From an uncultured Candidatus Saccharibacteria bacterium (GTDB taxonomy: Bacteria > Patescibacteriota > Minisyncoccia > Phycocordibacterales > CSBR16-119): a DNA stretch of 64,000 nucleotides. Position 1 is the first letter of the stretch. Every line of letters begins with the position of its first letter. The notes beneath the pieces are model-generated. The model saw only the letters and a list, made by a program, of their open reading frames with translations, was not told where the DNA came from and ran no database searches. Shown piece by piece: positions 4,056 to 63,880 of this stretch. The stretch lies in contig CAYHDV010000001.1 in the NCBI GenBank assembly GCA_964355515.1, forward strand, positions 26,544 to 90,543, given 5' to 3'. The position numbers and the translations under genes were made by a program.

Positions 4056-5018
4056 CTACAGCCCTACTTTTTCTTTCACCTCCTTCATTTTTGCTCCAGC
4101 TACTAGGAGGGCTTGTTCTCTTCCCTTTTTTAGTATCTCTTCCACCAGAGCTGGATTTTGTTCGTAGTAGGCTCGCCTCTCTCGCATAGGCTCGACCATC
4201 TCGAGAATCGCCTCAAAGAGCATATTCTTCGCTTCTCCATATCCAAGACCACCCTTCTCAAGAAGCTCTTTCATTTCTCCTGCCCTATCTCCAACAACAA
4301 TCTTATATAGTTGGTAGACAATAACTTCTTCTGCGTTCTTTTTTTCTTCTGGGGCTTTGCTATCTGTGATAATGCTCATCACCGCCTTTTTTATTTCTTC
4401 ATCAGTCCCAAAGAGTGGGATAGTATTCCCATACGACTTGGACATCTTTCGTCCATCTGTCCCTGGCACGGTCTCCACATCTTCAAGAATCATTTCTTTT
4501 GGAAGAGAAAATGTCTCTCCATAGGTATTATTGAATTTCTGCGCGATGTCTCGAGCATATTCGATGTGTTGGCGTTGGTCTTTGCCTACTGGGACAATTT
4601 CTGGACTGTAGAGCAAAATATCTGATGCCATAAGTACAGGATAATTGAAGAGCCCCATACTTGGCTCGTCACCTTTTGCCACAGCATCCTTGTAAGCATG
4701 CGCTCTCATCATAAAAGGCACTGTCACGAGAGTATCAAAAATCCATGTAAGCTCTGTGTGGGCAGATATTTCTGATTGACGGAAGAGAACAACTTTTTCT
4801 GGATCAAGACCAATTCCAAGATAATCAAGAACTAAATCTCTCGACAGTGATTTCATTTGAGCACCGTCTTGGATAAAATTGAGAGCATGCAAATCTGCAA
4901 CAAAAATAAATGCGTCATACTCGTTTTGTAAATCAAGAAACTGACGCATCGCACCAAAATAATTTCCAATATGTGGGCGTCCTGTAGGCTTCACCCCTGA
5001 AAGTAATCGTTTTTTCAT
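4056..5018 (-). CDS. trpS: Tryptophan--tRNA ligase
   Basis: 320 aa with a HIGH-type motif (PHIGNYFG) and KMSKS (GRKMSKSYGN). Size and layout fit TrpRS. Confidence 0.85.
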   Translation of the reverse strand: MKKRLLSGVKPTGRPHIGNYFGAMRQFLDLQNEYDAFIFVADLHALNFIQDGAQMKSLSRDLVLDYLGIGLDPEKVVLFRQSEISAHTELTWIFDTLVTVPFMMRAHAYKDAVAKGDEPSMGLFNYPVLMASDILLYSPEIVPVGKDQRQHIEYARDIAQKFNNTYGETFSLPKEMILEDVETVPGTDGRKMSKSYGNTIPLFGTDEEIKKAVMSIITDSKAPEEKKNAEEVIVYQLYKIVVGDRAGEMKELLEKGGLGYGEAKNMLFEAILEMVEPMRERRAYYEQNPALVEEILKKGREQALLVAGAKMKEVKEKVGL

Positions 5019-7767: not shown

Positions 7768-7797
7768 AGAGCGGGGCCGAAGGCCCCGCTCTTATAA
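7768..7797. terminator. Bidirectional terminator
   Basis: gagcggggccgaaggccccgctc hairpin between convergent recR and the large minus-strand gene. Confidence 0.75.
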
Positions 7798-7804
7798 AGG
7801 TTCA

Positions 7805-10207
7805 TCAATGAGATTCTGTCTTCACGACAGTGTCCCCATTTCTCCAAATCACAATCTGATTGCCAAAGCTTACAGTGTGCGTCTGGAGGTCACGAAGCAA
7901 CACTCCTTGCCCAATCCTTGAACCAATGGTGCTGTAGACATCACCCACGATAAGTGGGTTTTGCCTGACAATCTCCTCGATTCCGTTTGGTGGAGTTGGT
8001 GAGTTAAGGGTTGTGAAGTAAAAAACTCCATAACTAGACTCATAAACTCCTGCCACGTAGAAATCAAGTTCAAAGAAAATGTTTTGTCCATCAGGCAAAT
8101 CGGCCAAATGGAAATTCATCGGCTGGTTTGCATTCAAGAGCAATATTGGATCAAGCGATTCTCCTGTTTGTCCAAGTGGATACCATCTCATCACGCAAGT
8201 GACTTGTGCCAATCCATGTGGATCGGCCCAGACTTGAATAATCCCCGCGGTTGAATCCACTACCAGCTCCTGCCATCCCAGATACTCTACTGGCCCCAAA
8301 ACTGGAGGCTCAACATATTCCGGAAGTGCCTGACTAAATGTCGGACTTTCCACCCAGCCACCTTCGGCATTTATGTAGATGATCCGATAATAAACCGAAT
8401 CTTCTTCTGCCTGAACGTAGGGCCAGATGTCAGCATGTGCCGTGTATGAACCAATACTTGGTGTTGCCACCGTATCTTGATTCGAAAGTGGACTTGCAAG
8501 AGTCGCAAGATTCTCACTTAGTCTCAAGTAAGCACTTGCACCATTGAGACTCATTGGATTAGCCAAAAAATCAATTTCAGCAATCCAGGTGATCTCAGAC
8601 CATGTTATTGGCATAAGATTTACCACAGGCTGACCAGGTGTCGGCATGGTCGTAAAAGTCCATACCATAGTCCTATCAGTATGAGGAGAAAGTGAATCTT
8701 TCCCCACCACTGTCACACGGTATTCTGTACCGTTCGCAAGACTTGAGTATGCCACCGATTGATTAAGCGTTCCACTTGCGTCATAGAAGTTTTGACTTGA
8801 GATCAGTCCGGGGTTTAACCCGCTTAATTGCTCAAGCTCTACCTCTGCGTTCACTCCTCCAACATTTATCGAGCGGTCAACCAACAGATTGAAACCATAA
8901 CTCACCGCAGTTACCACAGGACCGGTAGATGAAATATCCACAAGTCCGGGTTCATACATGGTGATGTAGTAGGTCCAAGTCTCGGTGGATCCATCTATCG
9001 CTCGCGTGAGTGTGATGGTGACCATCTCGGTCGATCCCGGTGTCAAATTTGTCACCGTGACATCGACAGTATCAAGGCCCATAGTCGCAATTCCTCCCGG
9101 AAAGTTCAAATTTTCCTGAGGAAAGTTCACCACTACATTGCTTGGTCCTCCATCCGAATATGTCGGAATGTGGAGCTCCACTTCGTGAAGACCTGTGCTG
9201 TCATGAGTCACCTGTCCGATAGACAAGTCATCCAAATCAGCCGTGGTCACACTCAGTGTTGCACTTGCCGTACCTCCAGCATTTGTTGCTATGATTTGCC
9301 ATGTGTGCACTGTCCCGAATCCTAGCCCAGGAAGAGTGTACGAGCCAATAGCTGTGTCAACAGTCGTGTTGGTATACACAGAAACTCCATCAGCAAGCAA
9401 ATTGTAGCTTGTAGTGTTTGTCCCGTTCCCAATAACTGTGAACTCTACTTCCTGTGTACTACTTGTCGCTGTTAGCGAATCAAGATAGACAAGTGGCACA
9501 GTCACTGCTCCTGTTGTAAAGGTTAAAACTGGACTCGTAAAGAGTACAATCCCACCTCCAGCATTTGCTCTGACACGTCCTGTATAGGTCGTATTCGGTT
9601 GGCAGTTTGTGATGACAATACTTTTGTCATGTTGAACCCCAACCTCATACAACTGAGTGGCGACGATTCCTCCTGGTCCAGATTGCTGAACAAAGGAAAA
9701 CATTGCACCGCTCTGCCCATCCAGAGAGTCGATGTGGATGGTCGCACCACCAGAGGTGGTGTCCGTCACACTGTGACCCCATGAAGCTGGTATGCCCAAA
9801 TAAAAGGTCGTTGAATCCGTGTGAGTAAGTGATGTGTGCATATCAATTACGTTCCATCCCCCACCCGTTGTATCAACAATCTCTGTAACCACGACCATCT
9901 CAAGGACAGTATTTTCCGTGTTTACATCAAATACCATTGTTTGTGGGATTTGAAGCCCGTAACCAAGCATGAGGCTATCAACTGACACAATTGTATCACC
10001 ATCAAGTTTGATGCCCACCCCAAAAGAGTTTGATACCAATCCATTTTGAAGGAGATTGATAGCAGTGATTTCCGTGTTGATTTTGATCACCCACGGAGTA
10101 GTCACTTGAGTTCCAGTGATTTCTGCAAAAGCGACCGGGGTCACCTGAGCAGACAGATTAAACGCCATCCCTAGGACGGCTAGCGCAATAATGATTGTTT
10201 TTTTCAT
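7805..10207 (-). CDS. Large secreted Thr/Ser/Gly/Val-rich protein with repetitive beta-rich (Ig/FN3-like) segments; likely cell-surface protein
   Basis: 800 aa with N-terminal signal peptide MKKTIIIALAVLGMAFNLSAQ. Markedly higher GC than its surroundings, and low-complexity T/S-rich repeats. Confidence 0.6.
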   Translation of the reverse strand: MKKTIIIALAVLGMAFNLSAQVTPVAFAEITGTQVTTPWVIKINTEITAINLLQNGLVSNSFGVGIKLDGDTIVSVDSLMLGYGLQIPQTMVFDVNTENTVLEMVVVTEIVDTTGGGWNVIDMHTSLTHTDSTTFYLGIPASWGHSVTDTTSGGATIHIDSLDGQSGAMFSFVQQSGPGGIVATQLYEVGVQHDKSIVITNCQPNTTYTGRVRANAGGGIVLFTSPVLTFTTGAVTVPLVYLDSLTATSSTQEVEFTVIGNGTNTTSYNLLADGVSVYTNTTVDTAIGSYTLPGLGFGTVHTWQIIATNAGGTASATLSVTTADLDDLSIGQVTHDSTGLHEVELHIPTYSDGGPSNVVVNFPQENLNFPGGIATMGLDTVDVTVTNLTPGSTEMVTITLTRAIDGSTETWTYYITMYEPGLVDISSTGPVVTAVSYGFNLLVDRSINVGGVNAEVELEQLSGLNPGLISSQNFYDASGTLNQSVAYSSLANGTEYRVTVVGKDSLSPHTDRTMVWTFTTMPTPGQPVVNLMPITWSEITWIAEIDFLANPMSLNGASAYLRLSENLATLASPLSNQDTVATPSIGSYTAHADIWPYVQAEEDSVYYRIIYINAEGGWVESPTFSQALPEYVEPPVLGPVEYLGWQELVVDSTAGIIQVWADPHGLAQVTCVMRWYPLGQTGESLDPILLLNANQPMNFHLADLPDGQNIFFELDFYVAGVYESSYGVFYFTTLNSPTPPNGIEEIVRQNPLIVGDVYSTIGSRIGQGVLLRDLQTHTVSFGNQIVIWRNGDTVVKTESH

Positions 10208-11524: not shown

Positions 11525-11630
11525 CGAAAAGCAAGAAACCAGCCGCTAGAATCCCAGCCACGGGACCAATCCTAGAGATCCACCCTGCGGCCAACCCAGT
11601 CCCCCCAAAGCCCGGGAACCTTGGACGCGG
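11525..11630 (-). repeat. DGR-like variable repeat (VR) candidate spanning the stop codon (11572-11574) of lipoprotein gene 11572..12027
   Basis: Direct repeat of 11050-11155. It carries N substitutions only where the TR has A in the sense strand. The TR frame is rich in AAT/AAC/GAC codons. Confidence 0.75.
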
Positions 11631-12027
11631 TGGTTTTAGAACCAAGTGCGATGATACTCATTTCGCGTTGCAATCTGGGATATTCGTTTCCCAGGGTGAG
11701 AAGTTCGCGAGCGGTTGCTGGCCGAAGTCCACGGACAACCATCTGTGCCACAATATCTTCAGAAGACATTTTTCGGTTAAAGTTGAGTAGGATGGCTTCA
11801 CGGGTCATGATTGTGTCTTTCTTGTCATCTCCACCTTTTTGGATAAAGGCATTGTTGGAAATACCAGAATTGACCAAGTCATAGTTTCCCATGGTCACAA
11901 GGTCATCAATTGACTTGGAATAGTCAATTATGACATTCATCCGTAATTCATCGATTTGGTTTCCTCCACCACAAGATGAGAGGATTGCCATTGCTGGCAA
12001 GAGGGCAAAAAGTGTTAGCTTTTTCAT
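11572..12027 (-). CDS. Small lipoprotein; putative DGR target protein (C-terminal 18 aa encoded by the VR)
   Basis: 151 aa with signal peptide and lipobox (AILSSC). C-terminus ...ASKVPGLWGDWVGRRVDL lies within the repeat. The TAG stop sits in the middle of the repeat. Confidence 0.7.
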   Translation of the reverse strand: MKKLTLFALLPAMAILSSCGGGNQIDELRMNVIIDYSKSIDDLVTMGNYDLVNSGISNNAFIQKGGDDKKDTIMTREAILLNFNRKMSSEDIVAQMVVRGLRPATARELLTLGNEYPRLQREMSIIALGSKTTASKVPGLWGDWVGRRVDL

Positions 12028-12519: not shown

Positions 12520-13290
12520 TTAATCTTTCAGAAAAATTTTCTTTACTTGCTCAGTAGAAATCACTCTTGCATCCTCTACTTTATATTCTCCGATAGAAAT
12601 TCTCCGGAGAGCAGAAAGTGTAGCCGGTACGCCAAGTCTACTGCCTAGCTCGCGAGCAAGTGATCGAATATACGTCCCAGAACCAACATCAAAAGTGACC
12701 CTCAGAGCGACCTCACCCCAGCCCTGCCTGCCGGCAGGCAGGCCTCTCCTTATCAATGAGAGGGGGCTAGCCGATGACCCTTCTCGCTTCGAGTCGTTTC
12801 TTTTAATTTCTTTTAACTTTACCGAATGTACAAGCATTGTCTTTATCGGTACTTCGACCTCTTGGTCTTTGCGGGCATATTTGTACAAAGCCTTTCCATC
12901 TTTTTTGATAGCTGAATACACAGGCACAGCTATTTTTTGCTCACCTAGTAGAGTTTCTAATTTTTCCTTTATCTCTTTGTCTTCTAGAGCCGAAGCGTCC
13001 GCTTCCGCAATCACTTCCCCTTCCAAATCATCTGTTGTGGTTTGTTTACCCAACAGAATTTCTGCTTCATAGACTTTTGATTTGCCAATTAGCCCTGTGA
13101 GCTCCTTTGTCATCTTCCCCACACCCACGAGGATTAGTCCTGTAGCCCTCGGGTCGAGCGTCCCTGCGTGACCTATTTTGATTTTCGCATGTCCGGCTTC
13201 TTTGTACTCTCGTTTCAAAAAACGAATCACATCATACGATGTCACGCCAAATGGCTTGTCTATCAAAAGTAATTCCCCTTCTGGATTCAT
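12520..13290 (-). CDS. truB: tRNA pseudouridine(55) synthase TruB, carrying an in-frame roughly 30-aa insertion that contains a GC-rich palindrome
   Basis: 256 aa. LIDKPFGVTSYDVI, catalytic HAGTLDP, C-terminal GTYIRSLARELG. The insertion encodes ...SPLSLIRRGLPAGRQGWGEV. Confidence 0.85.
   Translation of the reverse strand: MNPEGELLLIDKPFGVTSYDVIRFLKREYKEAGHAKIKIGHAGTLDPRATGLILVGVGKMTKELTGLIGKSKVYEAEILLGKQTTTDDLEGEVIAEADASALEDKEIKEKLETLLGEQKIAVPVYSAIKKDGKALYKYARKDQEVEVPIKTMLVHSVKLKEIKRNDSKREGSSASPLSLIRRGLPAGRQGWGEVALRVTFDVGSGTYIRSLARELGSRLGVPATLSALRRISIGEYKVEDARVISTEQVKKIFLKD
12722..12752. repeat. GC-rich perfect palindrome CCTGCCTGCCGGCAGGCAGG embedded in-frame in truB
   Basis: Near-identical palindrome CCTGCCTGCCGGACAGGCAGG at 23519-23540 inside grpE. 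Confidence 0.7.
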
Positions 13291-13791: not shown

Positions 13792-14556
13792 ATGGATATT
13801 ATTTCATCAATTATTCTTGGTGTCGTGGAGGGACTAACAGAATTTCTGCCAATTTCTTCTACCGCCCACCTCATGATTACCAGCAAGCTTCTGGGACTTC
13901 CCCATACCCCATTTCTCTCTACATTTGAAATTGGTATTCAGTCTGGGGCCATCCTTGCTGTTATTATTTATTACTTTAAACGAATTTTTTCTTCAAGAGA
14001 TCTCTTTTGGAAAATTGTGGTGGGGTTTATCCCTACAGCAGTCATCGGGTTTTTATTATATGATGTAGTCAAAAATTATCTCCTTGAATCTTTGGTTGTT
14101 GTAGGCTGGGCGTTACTTATCGGAGGAGTAATTATTATTCTAATAGAGAAATTTCATAAATCAGTTCCTGAATCCGCTGAAGTAGAATCTATTTCATATA
14201 AGCAATCAGTACTGCTTGGATTCTTCCAAGTGTTCGCAATAATACCCGGAGTCTCACGTTCTGGGGCGACGATTATGGGAGGGCTTTTGTCTGGAATCAG
14301 CAGAAGACAAATTGTGGAGTTTTCTTTCTTGCTTGCGATACCCACAATTCTGGGAGCAACTGGTTTTGATATTCTAAAAAGTGGCATAAGCTTCACAAAT
14401 CAAGAATTACTAGTATTTGGAATTGGGACTGTGGTTTCTGCCCTGACAGCCTGGGCAGCAATTAAGTTTTTCTTGAAATTTATCTCAAGCCATTCTTTTG
14501 AAGTGTTTGGGTGGTACAGAATTCTGGTAGGGATACTCATCCTCCTATTTTTATAA
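13792..14556 (+). CDS. uppP: Undecaprenyl-diphosphatase UppP (BacA)
   Basis: MDIISSIILGVVEGLTEFLPISSTAHL is the classic UppP N-terminus. Multi-TM protein, and the start was chosen at an internal Met of the longer ORF. Confidence 0.85.
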   Translation: MDIISSIILGVVEGLTEFLPISSTAHLMITSKLLGLPHTPFLSTFEIGIQSGAILAVIIYYFKRIFSSRDLFWKIVVGFIPTAVIGFLLYDVVKNYLLESLVVVGWALLIGGVIIILIEKFHKSVPESAEVESISYKQSVLLGFFQVFAIIPGVSRSGATIMGGLLSGISRRQIVEFSFLLAIPTILGATGFDILKSGISFTNQELLVFGIGTVVSALTAWAAIKFFLKFISSHSFEVFGWYRILVGILILLFL

Positions 14557-57180: not shown

Positions 57181-57495
57181 TTAATTAATCAAACCAAGCT
57201 GATTCTTAACAGATTGATTAAAGCGATCCCACTGTGCTTTCACTTGTCTTTGGTAAGATTCTTGTTCAGAATTGATCATTCTCTTTTTCATACCTTCTGG
57301 TAGTGAGCCACTCTGGTAGACAGCAAGCATTTTATCGTGTCCTTCTTTAAAGGTTTTCAATGCTCGCAAGTGTGGGTCCTTAAGAATTTCAATATTCCTG
57401 AGAATAGCTTGATTTACTTGCTTATTTAGTTGATTTTTGTACTGAGCTAATTGCTCATTTAAATGTTTCTGTAATAATTTCAACTCTTCGTCCAT
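57181..57495 (-). CDS. Hypothetical coiled-coil protein
   Basis: 104-aa ORF with bidirectional terminator at 57142-57168. Confidence 0.35.
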   Translation of the reverse strand: MDEELKLLQKHLNEQLAQYKNQLNKQVNQAILRNIEILKDPHLRALKTFKEGHDKMLAVYQSGSLPEGMKKRMINSEQESYQRQVKAQWDRFNQSVKNQLGLIN

Positions 57496-58314: not shown

Positions 58315-58482
58315 TTATTTATGAAGATCTTTTGTCAGATCTGGTTCTTCTTTTGGAAAAACCTTGTCGGTCTTTGAATTCTTCCCAACCTCAAGTGGTT
58401 TAATGATCACCTCTGGCTCCCTGAAGCAAGACACAATGAAGATCATAATAAGGGTAACGGGTACTAAGAAGAGCTTTTTCAT
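58315..58482 (-). CDS. Small lipoprotein (55 aa), not in the ORF track
   Basis: Minus-strand translation gives MKKLFLVPVTLIMIFIVSCFREPEVIIKPLEVGKNSKTDKVFPKEEPDLTKDLHK with lipobox IVSC. Terminator at 58258-58285 immediately downstream. Confidence 0.45.
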   Translation of the reverse strand: MKKLFLVPVTLIMIFIVSCFREPEVIIKPLEVGKNSKTDKVFPKEEPDLTKDLHK

Positions 58483-58656
58483 TAGATCTGAATTTTATGT
58501 TTAGCATATTATAGCATATATAATATTTATGTCAATCAATCTCTACATAAAAATAGCTGAAGGCCGTCTACTTAAAAAGAGCCTTTATATAAAGGCTCTT
58601 TTTAAGATTAACTGAGATGGTTATAACCCCAAATAAGAATATCTTATCTCAGAATA

Positions 58657-59661
58657 TTAATTCATCTTTGAATATGGAGGATAGATTTCTTTGTCTATTG
58701 TTCTTTCAAAGCAAGTCTCCCCCACTTCATGATTCCAAGAATCACCACCAGAAACACCAGGATAAGGCATAGAAGAATCCACCATGTCTCCAACGATCAT
58801 AGGCCTCACACCTCCTCCACCATATTCTACCCAGCCTTCTTGAGATACATCAGAGAAAGTTGCACACAACTCAAATGTTATATCTGCTTTCTTTTTGTAA
58901 GTATAAGCTCGTCCTTTTTCAAACTCTGGATCAACAGGTATTGTGTATCCAGAAAGAGGGTTCACCAGATCAGACAATTGCTCTGGAAGTTTTTCTTTTT
59001 GTTGCCAATAAGAGATCACTTGCCATTGAATAGTCTGCAAGTCTTCCACCCGTCTTTGATCAAGCCTCCATTCTCTCTGGTCTTTTGGTGAACCAATAAT
59101 AGTAAAGCTAAGCACCACCGCCACAAGCACTAGTAACGGACCAGCAATCATACTTGATTTGATAATTAAATTTTTCCACTTTTTGAAAGCTCCAAGCTCT
59201 ACCAGATAGTATGCTCCGATTATTTTTGCGGTAGCAAGTACGAGCAAGACTTTCAATATAAATCGTGTAGTAATTTCTCCTGATACAAAGTAATTCACAA
59301 GAGTCACCAAGTCCACAATCAAAATCACACCCACCAGAAAGACTATTAGGTACAACATCCACTTTTTAATTATTTCATCCACTCTACCCTGCTTGATATC
59401 CACCGCCTTTTTCCAAAAATAAGAAACTGCCAAAAATACGGGGAGGACGATTATCAAAGTTGCGATAGAAGTCCTGATTGATTCATAATCCCAAGATGAA
59501 TATCCGTATTGATATACAGCATTCAAAGCATCTGGGAACTTTTTATTTAACGCTTCAAATACTAAGTTCAAAAAAGCTACTACTGTGGCTATAAGCGTAA
59601 CCAAAACTCCTAACGAAAGGAAAAAGAATTTTGGTGTCATTTTTTCTGATGTGTGTTCCAT
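58657..59661 (-). CDS. Polytopic membrane protein of unknown function
   Basis: 334 aa. About six TM helices, then a soluble C-terminal domain. Confidence 0.5.
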   Translation of the reverse strand: MEHTSEKMTPKFFFLSLGVLVTLIATVVAFLNLVFEALNKKFPDALNAVYQYGYSSWDYESIRTSIATLIIVLPVFLAVSYFWKKAVDIKQGRVDEIIKKWMLYLIVFLVGVILIVDLVTLVNYFVSGEITTRFILKVLLVLATAKIIGAYYLVELGAFKKWKNLIIKSSMIAGPLLVLVAVVLSFTIIGSPKDQREWRLDQRRVEDLQTIQWQVISYWQQKEKLPEQLSDLVNPLSGYTIPVDPEFEKGRAYTYKKKADITFELCATFSDVSQEGWVEYGGGGVRPMIVGDMVDSSMPYPGVSGGDSWNHEVGETCFERTIDKEIYPPYSKMN

Positions 59662-59734: not shown

Positions 59735-62700
59735 TTATACTAATACTACTGGATGTGCTCCACTCTTATTATAAATTGGATAACCATTAAAATTAGTTTC
59801 TTTTGTATTTTTTAATGAAATAGCATTTTCTCTCTTAAAAGATTTTTGATAATACTCGACAACATAACCCCTATTAGATGCAGAACCCGAATTATATGCA
59901 ACTCCAATTTTCTTAATCCCCCTAATTTCTCCAACTTTTTTAACTTCTCCTATTATTTTCTCAATAAGTTCATTAGGATCAACTATCTGGGAAAGATTTT
60001 GTGAGGGATTATTTGCTCTTATAACGAGTATTGGTTCGTTCCTATCTGTTTTTGTTTCAACAACCAAGAATGATCCTGTAAATTTTGCTTGAGAAGTATT
60101 TTTATCTATTACCAAAGAATACGAGATGATATTTTCATATTCACCCTTTGCTAATTCTAGATTTCTTCTACTAGTACAAGCACCTCCAAGATCTCCAGAA
60201 AATATTCTTTGCATCCCCTTTGACGGTATGAGGGTTATTTCTTTTTTCTTTTGGCTAAGCTCCCCTCTTTCAAGGATTTCTAATTTCTTCTCTGTATTAG
60301 CAAGAATTCCTTTTTCAAAATCTTGTGTTCCCCATATTTTTTTTAAATACTTAATTGTATTTTTATCACTTATAGCGGCAGCATCAGTTTCTCCATGTTT
60401 TTTATCCAAATAATGTTCGGCAACATGAGAACGTATAAACTCACTTAGGATACTAACACTATCCGCTGACGGTTTGGATGTAAACATGTCTTTATTATTT
60501 AATTTTTCCATTTGACTCGGAAATTTTTTTGCCATGTCCATCAAAGATAGGCTCATCAATAGCTCTTGTTTTGATTTAAAATCATCGGGAACAACCGAAT
60601 TGTAAGCTTCCATGATTTCTGGTATTGTTTTTTGTTTTATATTTACTGAAGTTAGATCAGCTAATGATTTTTCAAGTAAACTTTTTTTCTTATTCAAACC
60701 AATAACTAATTTCTCATTTTTCTGCTCTTTCTGTTCTTCTATTTCCATGTTTTGCATGGTAAGTGCAAGCTGATCATTTATTTCTAAGATGACTTCTTGG
60801 TTATAAAAACTCAATTTTTCGTCCAAAGAAATGTTTTTGTTTTCATCTAGTGACTTTATTGCTTGAAAAATTTTTTCATGAAAATTAACGAGGTCAGGGT
60901 TATTAAAAAGATCTGAAAGATGTTTATCAATATCAATACTTTCTCGGTTTTCTGTACCATATTCCCCTACAGATATATTTGTTTCTTTATAACCTTCTGG
61001 AATTTGAAATAATTCTGGACTACTTTCATATTTTTTCCTATATGTATTCAATGTTTCTTCCATTGTCCCTCCTTGTGAATGACCAGAATCTCCTTTTATT
61101 GAGGTCAAAAATTCTTTTCCAAAATCTGAACTAAGGACTTTATTAATAACTAAAATATCCTCATTTACTAAACCTTGAGTAATAGTCTGTCTGTATCTTT
61201 CAATTTCATTTAGTAAAAGATTTATGTTGGTTGGGTCTTTCTCGCATAATTTATCAACGTCTATGTCAAAATTGCTCTTAATTTTACTTTTTAGATTTTC
61301 AGTCATATTTAAGACTGAATCATTTCGCTTAATTTCAGTAAAAAGTTTAAAATAATTTGGCAAATTCACAGGGCCAACTTTCTTTATATATTCGAAAAAT
61401 ATTTTACTATCTTCTATTTTATTACTATCTAAAATGCCTTGTTCTACCATTGATCTAGCAAGAGGATTAATGTCTGTGTGCCATTTATCATACTCTTGTC
61501 TACGTGAATGTTTATAGATTGATAATATTTTTTCAACACTCTTAGCCCATGCGGAATTCTCAAGTTTCTCTTTTACTTCCTCGGTATATTTTTCTGGTAT
61601 TTTATGTAAATCAACCATCAATAATGATAATTGAGATATGTTGAATCTATTTTTCTTTGTATTGTTCTCAATAAAAGATTCTATGCTAGGCAAAAATGCC
61701 TCGTCAGCTTTCTGCGAAAGTTTTACACCATCTTCGTTTTTCAAAAGACCATTTTCAGTAAATTTTCTTATTTGATCTTTTTCAAATTCGAGCAAGGTTT
61801 TATAATCTCCCCATGATACATGGTCATTAATTCTAGAAGAAAGCCTTCTAAAAACCTCTTCTTTTACTATCTCTTTAATTTCAGGAGAAGAAGAAAATAT
61901 CTTAGTCCCAACAAAGTTAAGATACTCTCCATCGTTAGCATCTTTAGTAATTAACTTTAAAATTGTATGTTTTTCTTCAAGAGAATACGGAAATTCCGCG
62001 TTCTCTAATACCTTTGACATTGGATGATATGGGATAGAAACTAAATTAACAAACATCTTCCTGTAAATGATGTCTTTTTCTGTTTCAGAGAAACCGGCCA
62101 GATCAACCAATTGCTGAAAACTTCCTAAGCTACGAGAGGCTTTGGAAGCTCTTTCCGGATATCGTTCCTGTGGGTCAGTCATTTCTAAAATCTTTTCCTT
62201 TAGAAAAAGAGTGCTATCTTTTTCTAAAGAAATATTATTTTCAGAAACAAATTGAACAAAAGCATCCACTCGATCAGGAAGATTTATGTAGTCCCAGCTG
62301 TGATTAAGGTTAATATCTTGTGATTCAGGCACCCTATCTATCTTTGAAAAGATATGGTGAGAGTTCGCGTCGGTGTGCATTTTTGATGACTTTTCAAAAT
62401 AAGCTTTTAGATATTTAATTTGTTCCTCATCTTTACAATCTATTATTTTATTCAAATTTGCAGCATATAATATATCCATGTCCGAATTCCTGCTCCGATA
62501 GTTATAGGAAAGAGTGAATACTTCCTCATATTTTCTATGTTGAATAAATTCGTTATAGTTTTTTGCTGCAGATATAGTATCTTTTGGTAACACCTTGTCT
62601 GCTATCCCCTCATAGTTCTTGAGAATTTTTGCTATTGAATAAATACTAGATTTACCACGACCTAACCCAACATGCCCAGCCAAAATATCTGCGTCATTTT

Positions 62701-63106
62701 GATTCTCTCGCCCGATATTTTCTATTAGTTTTTCTATCTTGGAATGGATTGGGCGTATTTTAAATTCAGCAATAATAGAGTTATGAAGATTTTGGAAGTT
62801 TTCTTCATAATAACTGATAATTTGCTCCTGCAATCCTAACTTCACTTTTTCCGCTTTTTTATATATATCTTTATCTACCCATGAAACTTTTTCCAAAATT
62901 GCCTTAATTTCTTCTTCGGTTGCAGATAAAAGTTTGAGTTTTTTTGTAATTTCATCTGTGTTGCTAATCGCGGTGTCGGCAATAATGTCAATTTGATCTT
63001 CAGTGATATCAAGAATATTATTTGTATTCTCCAATACCCCTATCTGCTCTATTTTTTCTTGGGCATCTTCTTCAACTGTCTTTTTTTCAAAATTATTTTT
63101 TTCCAT
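59735..63106 (-). CDS. Giant (1123 aa) K/E/N-rich cytoplasmic protein of unknown function; strongly AT-rich relative to its neighbours
   Basis: Uninterrupted 3.4-kb ORF with no TM or signal peptide and no recognisable catalytic motif. Composition is distinct from flanking genes. Confidence 0.6.
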   Translation of the reverse strand: MEKNNFEKKTVEEDAQEKIEQIGVLENTNNILDITEDQIDIIADTAISNTDEITKKLKLLSATEEEIKAILEKVSWVDKDIYKKAEKVKLGLQEQIISYYEENFQNLHNSIIAEFKIRPIHSKIEKLIENIGRENQNDADILAGHVGLGRGKSSIYSIAKILKNYEGIADKVLPKDTISAAKNYNEFIQHRKYEEVFTLSYNYRSRNSDMDILYAANLNKIIDCKDEEQIKYLKAYFEKSSKMHTDANSHHIFSKIDRVPESQDINLNHSWDYINLPDRVDAFVQFVSENNISLEKDSTLFLKEKILEMTDPQERYPERASKASRSLGSFQQLVDLAGFSETEKDIIYRKMFVNLVSIPYHPMSKVLENAEFPYSLEEKHTILKLITKDANDGEYLNFVGTKIFSSSPEIKEIVKEEVFRRLSSRINDHVSWGDYKTLLEFEKDQIRKFTENGLLKNEDGVKLSQKADEAFLPSIESFIENNTKKNRFNISQLSLLMVDLHKIPEKYTEEVKEKLENSAWAKSVEKILSIYKHSRRQEYDKWHTDINPLARSMVEQGILDSNKIEDSKIFFEYIKKVGPVNLPNYFKLFTEIKRNDSVLNMTENLKSKIKSNFDIDVDKLCEKDPTNINLLLNEIERYRQTITQGLVNEDILVINKVLSSDFGKEFLTSIKGDSGHSQGGTMEETLNTYRKKYESSPELFQIPEGYKETNISVGEYGTENRESIDIDKHLSDLFNNPDLVNFHEKIFQAIKSLDENKNISLDEKLSFYNQEVILEINDQLALTMQNMEIEEQKEQKNEKLVIGLNKKKSLLEKSLADLTSVNIKQKTIPEIMEAYNSVVPDDFKSKQELLMSLSLMDMAKKFPSQMEKLNNKDMFTSKPSADSVSILSEFIRSHVAEHYLDKKHGETDAAAISDKNTIKYLKKIWGTQDFEKGILANTEKKLEILERGELSQKKKEITLIPSKGMQRIFSGDLGGACTSRRNLELAKGEYENIISYSLVIDKNTSQAKFTGSFLVVETKTDRNEPILVIRANNPSQNLSQIVDPNELIEKIIGEVKKVGEIRGIKKIGVAYNSGSASNRGYVVEYYQKSFKRENAISLKNTKETNFNGYPIYNKSGAHPVVLV

Positions 63107-63266
63107 AAATATCTTTTTTTAATTGGACAATTTTTCTTTCTTCGAGATGATGTGTTGCTTCAAGTAAAATATCCTTTTTTTGTTGAGAAAGTTTTTGTAT
63201 TTCTTCCGTATAATTAGCAAGCGCTTTATGGACTATCTTTTTAATTTCAGAAATTTTATTTTTCAT
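63093..63266 (-). CDS. Small (57 aa) coiled-coil protein overlapping the start of the giant ORF by 14 nt, not in the ORF track
   Basis: MKNKISEIKKIVHKALANYTEEIQKLSQQKKDILLEATHHLEERKIVQLKKDIYGKK. Translational-coupling geometry (ATGGAAAAAAATAA overlap). Confidence 0.35.
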   Translation of the reverse strand: MKNKISEIKKIVHKALANYTEEIQKLSQQKKDILLEATHHLEERKIVQLKKDIYGKK

Positions 63267-63764
63267 ATTATTTAATCAATTCCTCAATCAGAATTTAAAA
63301 TACGTGCGCTGATTTTTTAATATTCTTAAGTGGTATATTGCATACCCCTCTTTTCTATTCCGATAATGTATCTAACATGTATATCAAACAATTTCGCCAA
63401 ATCCTCATATTCCTTATCTTTTTTAAAGCCAAAATGATTCTGCTTTTTTACCGAACTTGATTGATATTGTAGATATATACACAGCTAAGCTGTTACATAC
63501 AGAATAGCAAATATTGTAAGATATATCTACATGGATTCATAAGCCACAAGTGTATTTCTTTTTCAAGAAAAGTGGATACTGGTGTCAGGTACCATTATGT
63601 GTGGATTTTATTGTGTCACAAATCACTAAGTCTACTCACATACTTCGTGTGTTGCGTGGACTAAGTGTTCGTGACCTCAGTTCGAGGTTTTTCTTTGTAG
63701 TACAAAGAAAAACAACTCTGCGCTTTCACAAAACGCCGAAAGCAAAGCAGTTTGCTTTCTAAAA

Positions 63765-63800
63765 ACAACAAAACGCCTATTTAGGCGTTTTGTTGTTTTT
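63765..63800. terminator. Hairpin terminator downstream of tRNA-Glu
   Basis: aacaacaaaacgcctatttaggcgttttgttgtt, followed by a T-run on the minus strand. Confidence 0.7.
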
Positions 63801-63808
63801 ACGTTTTG

Positions 63809-63880
63809 TGACCCTACAGAGAATCGAACTCTGATTACCACATTGAAAACGTGGTGTCCTAACCGTTAGACGATAGGGCC
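63809..63880 (-). tRNA. tRNA-Glu (anticodon UUC)
   Basis: Reverse complement reads GGCCCUAUCGUCUAACGGUUAGGACACCACGUUUUCAAUGUGGUAAUCAGAGUUCGAUUCUCUGUAGGGUCA. 7-bp acceptor stem, anticodon loop UUUUCAA, T-loop GGUUCGAUUC, no encoded CCA. Confidence 0.85.

Follow-up and report, generated by a model that had tools for sequence, protein, structure and literature searches.

The 64,000-nucleotide stretch of an uncultured Candidatus Saccharibacteria bacterium analysed here (contig CAYHDV010000001.1; referred to as the window) carries, on the 3′ side of a tRNA-Glu gene, an open reading frame (ORF) for a giant protein of 1123 amino acids (aa), preceded by an overlapping ORF of 57 aa. The data make it probable that this locus is an accessory two-gene cassette, formed by the 57-aa helical protein and the 1123-aa protein and lodged in a hypervariable slot immediately 3′ of the tRNA-Glu gene of this Patescibacteria (Paceibacteria-like) genome, in which the giant protein would be an acyl-transferring enzyme of the GNAT type and the small protein its regulatory partner. 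The cassette is about 4.1 kb long, from the 73-nt gap that separates the giant ORF from the downstream DUF5671 gene up to the tRNA gene. The latter lies on the same strand as the giant ORF, whose start is located at about 700 nt from it. The components of the locus are the following:

59735..63106, minus strand: giant ORF, 1123 aa, ATG start, stop codon at 59735-59737
61595..63106, minus strand: N-terminal region of the giant ORF (residues 1-504), variable, all-helical and alpha-solenoid-like, common to the closest homologues only
60275..61594, minus strand: conserved helical domain of the giant ORF (residues 505 to ~944), family-wide, from the AlphaFold2 model and conservation
59738..60274, minus strand: C-terminal domain of the giant ORF with a predicted GNAT fold (residues ~945-1123)
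63093..63266, minus strand: small partner ORF, 57 aa, helical, sharing 14 nt with the start of the giant ORF
63267..63807, minus strand: intergenic region between tRNA-Glu and the small ORF, rich in hairpins
63808..63880, minus strand: tRNA-Glu(UUC), upstream edge of the variable slot

Family of the giant protein

An original prediction, made from the DNA letters of the window, had proposed an AT-rich gene for a 1123-aa protein at this position. An exhaustive HMMER search with the giant protein yielded 463 cluster representatives (50% identity) at E ≤ 1e-3, including 125 at E ≤ 1e-30. Because it extends over 3.4 kb in DNA of 31% GC and has 463 homologue clusters, the giant ORF is no chance ORF, and the proposed gene, with its ATG start, is borne out. 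The nearest homologue is 42% identical, and a word-indexed search retrieved a single non-self relative, P0002 from a Patescibacteria group bacterium, with 28% identity over the C-terminal 620 aa. The region common to the family comprises query residues ~505-1123 and is strongest at ~880-1123, the N-terminal 500 aa finding a match in the closest relatives only. Evident fragments aside, family members are large, with the middle half of 150 listed sequences measuring 1046-1416 aa and the longest reaching 2562 aa. The named source organisms are Patescibacteria or Paceibacteria, and the family apparently comes from ultra-small bacteria of the Patescibacteria/Candidate Phyla Radiation (CPR).

The highest Kyte-Doolittle value of any 19-residue segment in the giant protein was 0.71; since no segment exceeds this value, the protein is devoid of transmembrane (TM) segments and signal peptide, in agreement with the original prediction. 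No strongly hydrophobic 19-mer was present in the 150 listed family members, and no internal repeats were found in the giant protein. Neither the giant nor the small protein showed any significant match to Pfam, NCBIfam, PADLOC, PHROGs or, by phmmer, PDB. In addition, a PDB profile search gave nothing meaningful, and literature searches, most of them aimed at CPR/Patescibacteria proteins of such kind, yielded no description of the family. The family, its architecture with a Cys/His/R-A-N-N-P signature, and the small partner family appear to be undescribed; the fold is already known.

Predicted fold and conserved residues

The model obtained with AlphaFold2 for residues 505-1123, based on a 54-sequence alignment, showed a mean predicted local distance difference test score (pLDDT) of 94.2 and a predicted TM-score (pTM) of 0.88. 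It begins with an all-helical domain; at about residue 949 an alpha/beta domain takes over, whose elements succeed one another as β1-α1-α2-β2-β3-β4-α3-β5-α4-β6-β7, the arrangement that characterizes the GNAT fold. We are confident of a predicted GNAT fold at the C-terminus of the giant protein, its membership of the superfamily being at the fold level only. The original statement that the protein has no recognisable domains holds for sequence-level comparisons, where Pfam and the other collections came out empty, and fails at the level of the modelled fold.

Residue conservation was assessed in ~160 sequences of the family. Four residues of the GNAT-fold domain were fully conserved (C977 and G1011, both 160/160; R1030, 159/159; R1079, 157/157), and N1032, N1033, P1034, N1078, H898, Y1086, T1104, F1106, N1107 and Y1109 were conserved in at least 94% of sequences, all of them being retained in the giant protein of the window. 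The invariant set of this domain reads C977, G1011, R1030-A-N-N-P1034, N1078-R1079, Y1086 and T1104/F1106/N1107/Y1109. In the conserved helical domain, W542, G578, G672 and the stretch E897-H898-Y899-L900 were nearly invariant. Judging from the alignment, invariant polar residues of this kind are the signature of an active site and not of a scaffold.

When placed on the model, the conserved residues are predicted to fall in the β4-α3 loop, at the start of α4 and in the α1-α2 region, which line the cofactor/acceptor cleft in GNAT proteins. The R-A-N-N-P motif at the end of β4 would occupy the position of the Q/R-x-x-G-x-G/A loop that binds coenzyme A (CoA) in GNATs. At this position the Arg is kept and the glycines are replaced (R1030-A-N-N-P1034-x), invariantly in the family. 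The series N1078-R1079...V1082..Y1086...F1090 at the start of α4 seems to resemble GNAT motif B, with its frequent general-acid Tyr, and C977, at the start of α2, probably borders the acceptor site.

A small protein encoded upstream of the giant gene

Homologues of the small ORF (48-58 aa, 30-47% pairwise identity) were found directly upstream of a giant homologue in six other loci, with a spacing between both genes that ranged from a 4-nt overlap (−4) to a 15-nt gap (+15):

L005: giant homologue P0004
L017: giant homologue of 1167 aa on a metagenome contig, with no protein id
L026: giant homologue P0003
L027: giant homologue P0151
L028: giant homologue P0156
L010: giant homologue P0008, with a small ORF that is only weakly similar

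A profile search against 5.8 billion proteins retrieved seven members of the small family, six of which are the partner ORFs of giant-gene cassettes; none of the seven is named or carries a Pfam domain. In one subclade, the small ORF is conserved and stays tightly associated with the giant gene as its partner. The coupling originally suggested on the basis of the 14-nt overlap is in line with this recurrent association. Fusion of the small protein to the giant protein in subclades without the small ORF was also considered and was rejected, as no such fusion exists.

In a sister subclade (P0154-like; L007, L008, L018, L020 and L022), the position directly upstream is taken by a gene for a 67-aa helix-turn-helix (HTH) protein of the XRE type, located 4 nt upstream of the giant homologue. 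In locus L005, the HTH gene and the small ORF occur together. In the window, the presence of an intact HTH gene in the upstream intergenic region was rejected. A tblastn comparison of residues 16-47 of the L007 HTH protein with this region matched ~63332-63427 on the minus strand, with 12/32 identical residues (37.5%) and an E value of 7.7e-4 in a search space of 541 nt. The matching stretch covers helix 2, the turn and helix 3, lacks a start codon and meets a stop codon right after helix 3; the peptide has no match in Pfam. It may at most be a weakly recognizable relic of an XRE HTH gene.

The same intergenic region (63267-63807, minus strand) contains a string of near-perfect hairpins, with an RNA folding z-score of −6.7 relative to shuffled sequences. 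A terminator scan identified in it a 20-bp perfect terminator-like hairpin at 63760-63801. Only the tRNA reached the gathering score in an Rfam search.

Absence of the giant gene from the syntenic site in relatives

Two relatives, L012 and L013, were identified by means of the phosphatidylserine decarboxylase (PSD) gene nearby. Both keep the S21-YbeY-FtsA-FtsZ-TrxB-PSD backbone, with FtsZ proteins 90-92% identical, and L013 also keeps the other flank, formed by tRNA-Glu-h100-TsaD-aminoacyl-tRNA synthetase-PrsW. No homologue of the giant gene was present in the fetched sequence of either relative. In L013, the interval between PSD and tRNA-Glu encodes an SDR protein, a photolyase and a SOUL protein. 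In L012, the variable interval holds a Na/H exchanger, a gene similar to h104 and a DUF5671 orthologue (82% identical), whose upstream neighbour, in place of the giant gene, codes for a membrane protein of 222 aa that matches Peptidase_M50B weakly and below threshold. Apart from the DUF5671 orthologue and the h104-like gene, none of the genes found in the slot of L012 or L013 is present in the window. Since the window, L012 and L013 hold unrelated genes in it, the interval from PSD to tRNA-Glu is a hypervariable slot, and the data support that the giant gene is accessory and not conserved in syntenic position. Most flanking genes are 65-92% identical to those of the relatives; the small hypothetical ORFs h104 and h100 reach only 33-50%.

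These observations bear on the possible acquired island of the original prediction. Absence of the giant gene from the site in L012 and L013 favours it; the evidence from composition is weak, and neither integrase nor att repeat was found. The DUF5671 membrane protein gene, which had been listed downstream of the giant ORF, belongs to the backbone and not to an island, as its conservation in L012 indicates.

Base composition and codon usage

The GC content of the giant gene (0.312, compared with a gene mean of 0.390, standard deviation 0.033; z −2.4) is the lowest among window genes of at least 150 aa. At third codon positions, the corresponding values are 0.239 vs 0.322 (standard deviation 0.056; z about −1.5), and other genes are equally low (0.228 and 0.230), several housekeeping-sized genes of the window matching the giant gene in this respect. 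K, E, I, L, S and N are abundant in the giant protein. From its amino-acid composition and the codon usage of the window, a GC content of 0.350 is expected (residual z −1.8), so that amino-acid composition explains about half of the GC deficit. Furthermore, synonymous choices in the giant gene are not atypical, any deviation being towards a closer fit to the window than expected. Composition is weak evidence for foreign origin, because half of the deficit derives from the amino-acid composition and codon usage is host-like. The claim that the gene is far more AT-rich than its neighbours was correct in that it has the lowest GC, and overstated in view of its third-position z-score and the contribution of the protein sequence.

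The most atypical synonymous usage in the window corresponds, by far (z −7.2), to an 800-aa gene at 7805-10207 on the minus strand, which also has the top GC content (0.466). Codon usage is also atypical in the genes at 11572-12027 and 12520-13290.

Possible signs of mobility in homologous loci

Several homologous cassettes are associated with tRNA genes or recombinases. In L005, a tRNA-Leu gene is located 350 nt upstream of the HTH gene, and in L017 a tRNA-Gln gene lies ~100 nt from the small ORF. In L007, tRNA-Leu abuts the gene for a large serine recombinase (552 aa), after which come the HTH and giant genes. These last two are bracketed by an inverted repeat of 288 nt (9445-9732 and 13895-14182) whose copies match perfectly. 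L008, from an independent sample, has the downstream copy in full at 4218-4505 and, where the contig begins (1-55), the outermost 55 nt of the upstream one. Pieces of the repeat also occur in L014, L018 and L022; it was not found in the window. The segment between the 288-nt repeats of L007 could be invertible or mobile. A second perfect inverted repeat in L007, of 131 nt, has its arms inside both ends of the recombinase ORF (7783-7913 / 9319-9449); it is odd and might be an assembly artefact.

Neighbourhoods resembling defence islands were observed in L010 and L027. The former includes genes for a large serine recombinase, an SNase, an N6/N4 methyltransferase and an AAA_15/21 ATPase. In the latter, a Thoeris-like pair, ThsB_TIR + ThsA_Macro (L027:2729-4143), and an S24-peptidase/IMS (Y-family polymerase) cassette are located 0.1-5 kb upstream of the small-ORF/giant pair, on a contig of Patescibacteria type.

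Functional interpretation of the cassette

Concerning the activity, its substrate class, the role of the partner and mobility, we infer the following. An acyl group, probably donated by acyl-CoA, would be transferred by the GNAT domain to an amine of a macromolecule, either a protein or an aminoacyl-tRNA, and the choice of this substrate would fall to the helical scaffold. As an invariant residue, Cys977 (perhaps jointly with His898) would have a catalytic or cofactor-handling role specific to the family. The co-translated small protein would bind the giant enzyme and regulate or neutralise it, its position being occupied by the XRE HTH protein in the sister subclade.

A number of observations weigh against this interpretation, which we nevertheless prefer. 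Pfam models, including those for GNATs (Acetyltransf_*), have no match in the giant protein or in 30 family members. Since the glycines of the CoA loop are replaced, the use of CoA is not assured and the identity of the donor is uncertain. That the invariant residues cluster, and that C977 and H898 are near each other, is presumed, the placement of residues in the GNAT-fold domain being based on the order of secondary-structure elements. As for mobility, the 10 kb flanking each side encode no recombinase or integrase, in the window as in L003, no second copy of the tRNA 3′ end (22-nt or 15-nt, with up to 3 mismatches) exists in the window, and the cassette is not bounded there by long repeats, direct or inverted. 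The original prediction had likewise seen no integrase or att duplicate. Large serine recombinases create no long direct repeats, so the missing att repeat is not decisive. The codon usage of the giant gene is host-like, and no family member occurs in IMG/VR viral contigs, INPHARED phages or PLSDB plasmids. The comparison with relatives covered contigs rather than whole genomes, and that of L012 ends 150 nt beyond the relevant position. Finally, distant members of the family stand without partners in housekeeping operons, as in L011, with the order MreB-MreC-X-TGT and 4-8 nt spacing, or adjoin FtsH, as in L009 and the P0011 contig. These contexts imply that the whole family may have a core cellular role. 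In L009 (14320-18992), the distant member P0019 comes right after FtsH and is followed by a DUF5663 protein and by a second giant protein, of 1452 aa, which has no Pfam domain and is outside the family of the giant protein of the window.

Such a core role is the basis of the alternative that survives best, to which we assign a minor but appreciable probability: a vertically inherited CPR enzyme, that is, a single-chain analogue of acetyltransferases made of scaffold and catalytic subunits (NatA, NatD), which would act on ribosomal, cytoskeletal or envelope proteins and would have reached its present position through ordinary rearrangement. The N-terminal half, a predicted solenoid like the Nat auxiliary subunits, agrees with it, as do the location of distant members between MreC and TGT or beside FtsH, the host-like codon usage and the lack of phage or plasmid copies. 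On the contrary, the giant gene is missing from the syntenic slot in two close relatives, its nearest homologue is far less similar (42%) than most flanking genes are to theirs (65-92%), and its subclade is tied to tRNAs, an HTH regulator, a recombinase, inverted repeats and defence genes. In addition, 463 clusters seem few for a universal CPR gene.

Another explanation, which we consider rather unlikely and which shares its core with the two-gene cassette preferred here, is a toxin-antitoxin (TA) or abortive-infection module, in which the GNAT domain would be a growth-arresting acetyltransferase acting, for example, on aminoacyl-tRNA like TacT, AtaT and KacT, the 57-aa protein (or the XRE protein in the sister subclade) would keep the toxin inactive, and the solenoid would be a sensor. 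A defence or toxin component, as the original prediction put it, is possible from the genomic context. The best Foldseek matches in PDB, weak ones, are the GNAT toxins AtaT (E 0.04), KacT and TacT3. A small ORF overlapping the giant gene or an XRE HTH gene 4 nt upstream of it, the Thoeris, Abi-like AAA_15/21 ATPase, methyltransferase and recombinase neighbours in homologous loci, and the patchy presence of the gene in a variable genomic slot also fit a TA module. However, the partner is not a DUF1778/ribbon-helix-helix (RHH) protein, the toxin would be ~7 times larger than known ones, PADLOC models have no match, and distant members lack partners altogether in their housekeeping operons. The invariant Cys and His residues are, to our knowledge, not features of GNAT toxins, and also argue against this explanation.

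It is improbable that the giant protein is a catalytically dead GNAT-fold scaffold with a structural or regulatory function. This pseudo-enzyme would account for the replaced glycines of the CoA loop (R-A-N-N-P) and for the failure of GNAT sequence models to match, but invariance of the polar residues C, R, N, N, N, R, H and Y over ~160 sequences with 25-60% identity is what an active site typically shows, more than a scaffold. Finally, a secreted or injected host-interaction effector, as the original prediction had proposed, is very improbable: GNAT-fold effectors exist in pathogens, and a large, fast-evolving, solenoid-containing protein in an episymbiotic lineage would suit such a function, but signal peptides and TM segments are absent from the giant protein and 150 relatives, and no secretion-system genes occur within 10 kb.

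Returning to the accessory GNAT cassette, a broader proposal, which we put forward as a doubtful one, is that it represents a new class of conflict or regulatory modules, combining a giant solenoid-GNAT protein with Cys(-His) chemistry and a ~55-aa or XRE inhibitor, and moved by large serine recombinases between tRNA-proximal sites. The 288-nt repeat of L007 and L008 could then make the cassette invertible, and the class would so far be limited to Patescibacteria-type contigs. Genomes of Patescibacteria are small, yet they spend 3-7 kb on members of a family that lacks annotation in Pfam, NCBIfam, PDB and the literature. Through the GNAT fold, the invariant Cys/Arg/Asn/His constellation and the small partner of one subclade, what was a hypothetical giant protein can now be framed as an enzyme hypothesis and tested. 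A toxin or defence system, if true, would be a new architecture for GNAT-based conflict systems in a lineage poorly known for them, and a cellular protein acyltransferase would be a CPR-specific regulatory enzyme.

Genes flanking the cassette

The tRNA-Glu gene and the membrane-protein and lipoprotein ORFs that had been reported downstream of the giant ORF are all present. Apart from the tRNA gene, they are:

58657..59661, minus strand: DUF5671 membrane protein (Pfam E value 3.6e-15), flanking gene outside the cassette
58315..58482, minus strand: 55-aa ORF with a lipobox-like 'IVSC' motif

The DUF5671 gene may be co-transcribed with the giant ORF. Just upstream of the 55-aa lipoprotein ORF, at 58508-58535 on the minus strand, there is a full consensus sigma-70-type promoter (12/12; TTGACA-16-TATAAT, with an upstream TG), and a perfect palindrome of 18+18 nt is found between this ORF and the DUF5671 gene, at 58571-58606. 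With this promoter and palindrome, the small lipoprotein gene looks independently transcribed. It had no match in L012 or L013.

The tRNA-Glu gene of the window (63808-63880) has the anticodon UUC, and its orthologue at the same backbone position in L013 (L013:14183-14257) has CUC. The two differ chiefly in the anticodon, with a compensating change in the anticodon stem. A helical ORF of 104 aa located between TrxB and PSD (57181-57495, minus strand) has a 50%-identical match in conserved position in L013, and a 33%-identical match in L012 (L012:11574-11885) at a different position within the variable region.

Comparison with known systems

Within the GNAT superfamily, the solved structures closest to the modelled domain are NatD/Naa40 (4u9w), SpNatD (4ua3) and diverse bacterial GNATs, with 3-16% sequence identity. 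In contrast to these, the domain described here has no Pfam GNAT match, carries N-N-P in place of the CoA-loop glycines, contains the invariant Cys977 along with His898, and constitutes the end of a helical protein of 1100-2500 aa.

The type II TA systems TacAT, AtaRT, KacAT and ItaRT consist of stand-alone GNATs of ~160-180 aa and a DUF1778 RHH antitoxin (PMC9177977, PMC7595197). The cassette shares with them the predicted GNAT fold, accessory regions and a small gene right upstream whose frame overlaps or abuts the next one. It differs in the size of the giant protein, 1123 aa with a helical scaffold of ~950 aa (1000-2500 aa in the family), and in its 57-aa helical partner, which has no DUF1778 or RHH signature in Pfam, NCBIfam or PADLOC. 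Because it departs from these systems in both toxin size and DUF1778 partner, the cassette is not a member of the GNAT-RHH TA family.

The eukaryotic and archaeal NatA complex associates a helical-repeat scaffold (Naa15) with a GNAT subunit (Naa10). The giant protein would unite both functions in a single polypeptide, with no sequence relationship to NatA, so that the likeness is one of analogy only.

With regard to tRNA-associated integrative islands, the cassette resembles them in its location directly 3′ of a tRNA gene and in its absence from sister genomes, and the homologous cassette of L007 adjoins tRNA-Leu and a large serine recombinase. Unlike such islands, the window shows neither recombinase nor att duplication, and the cassette itself is ~4 kb in length and comprises two genes only; the giant gene combines a low GC content with host-like synonymous usage.

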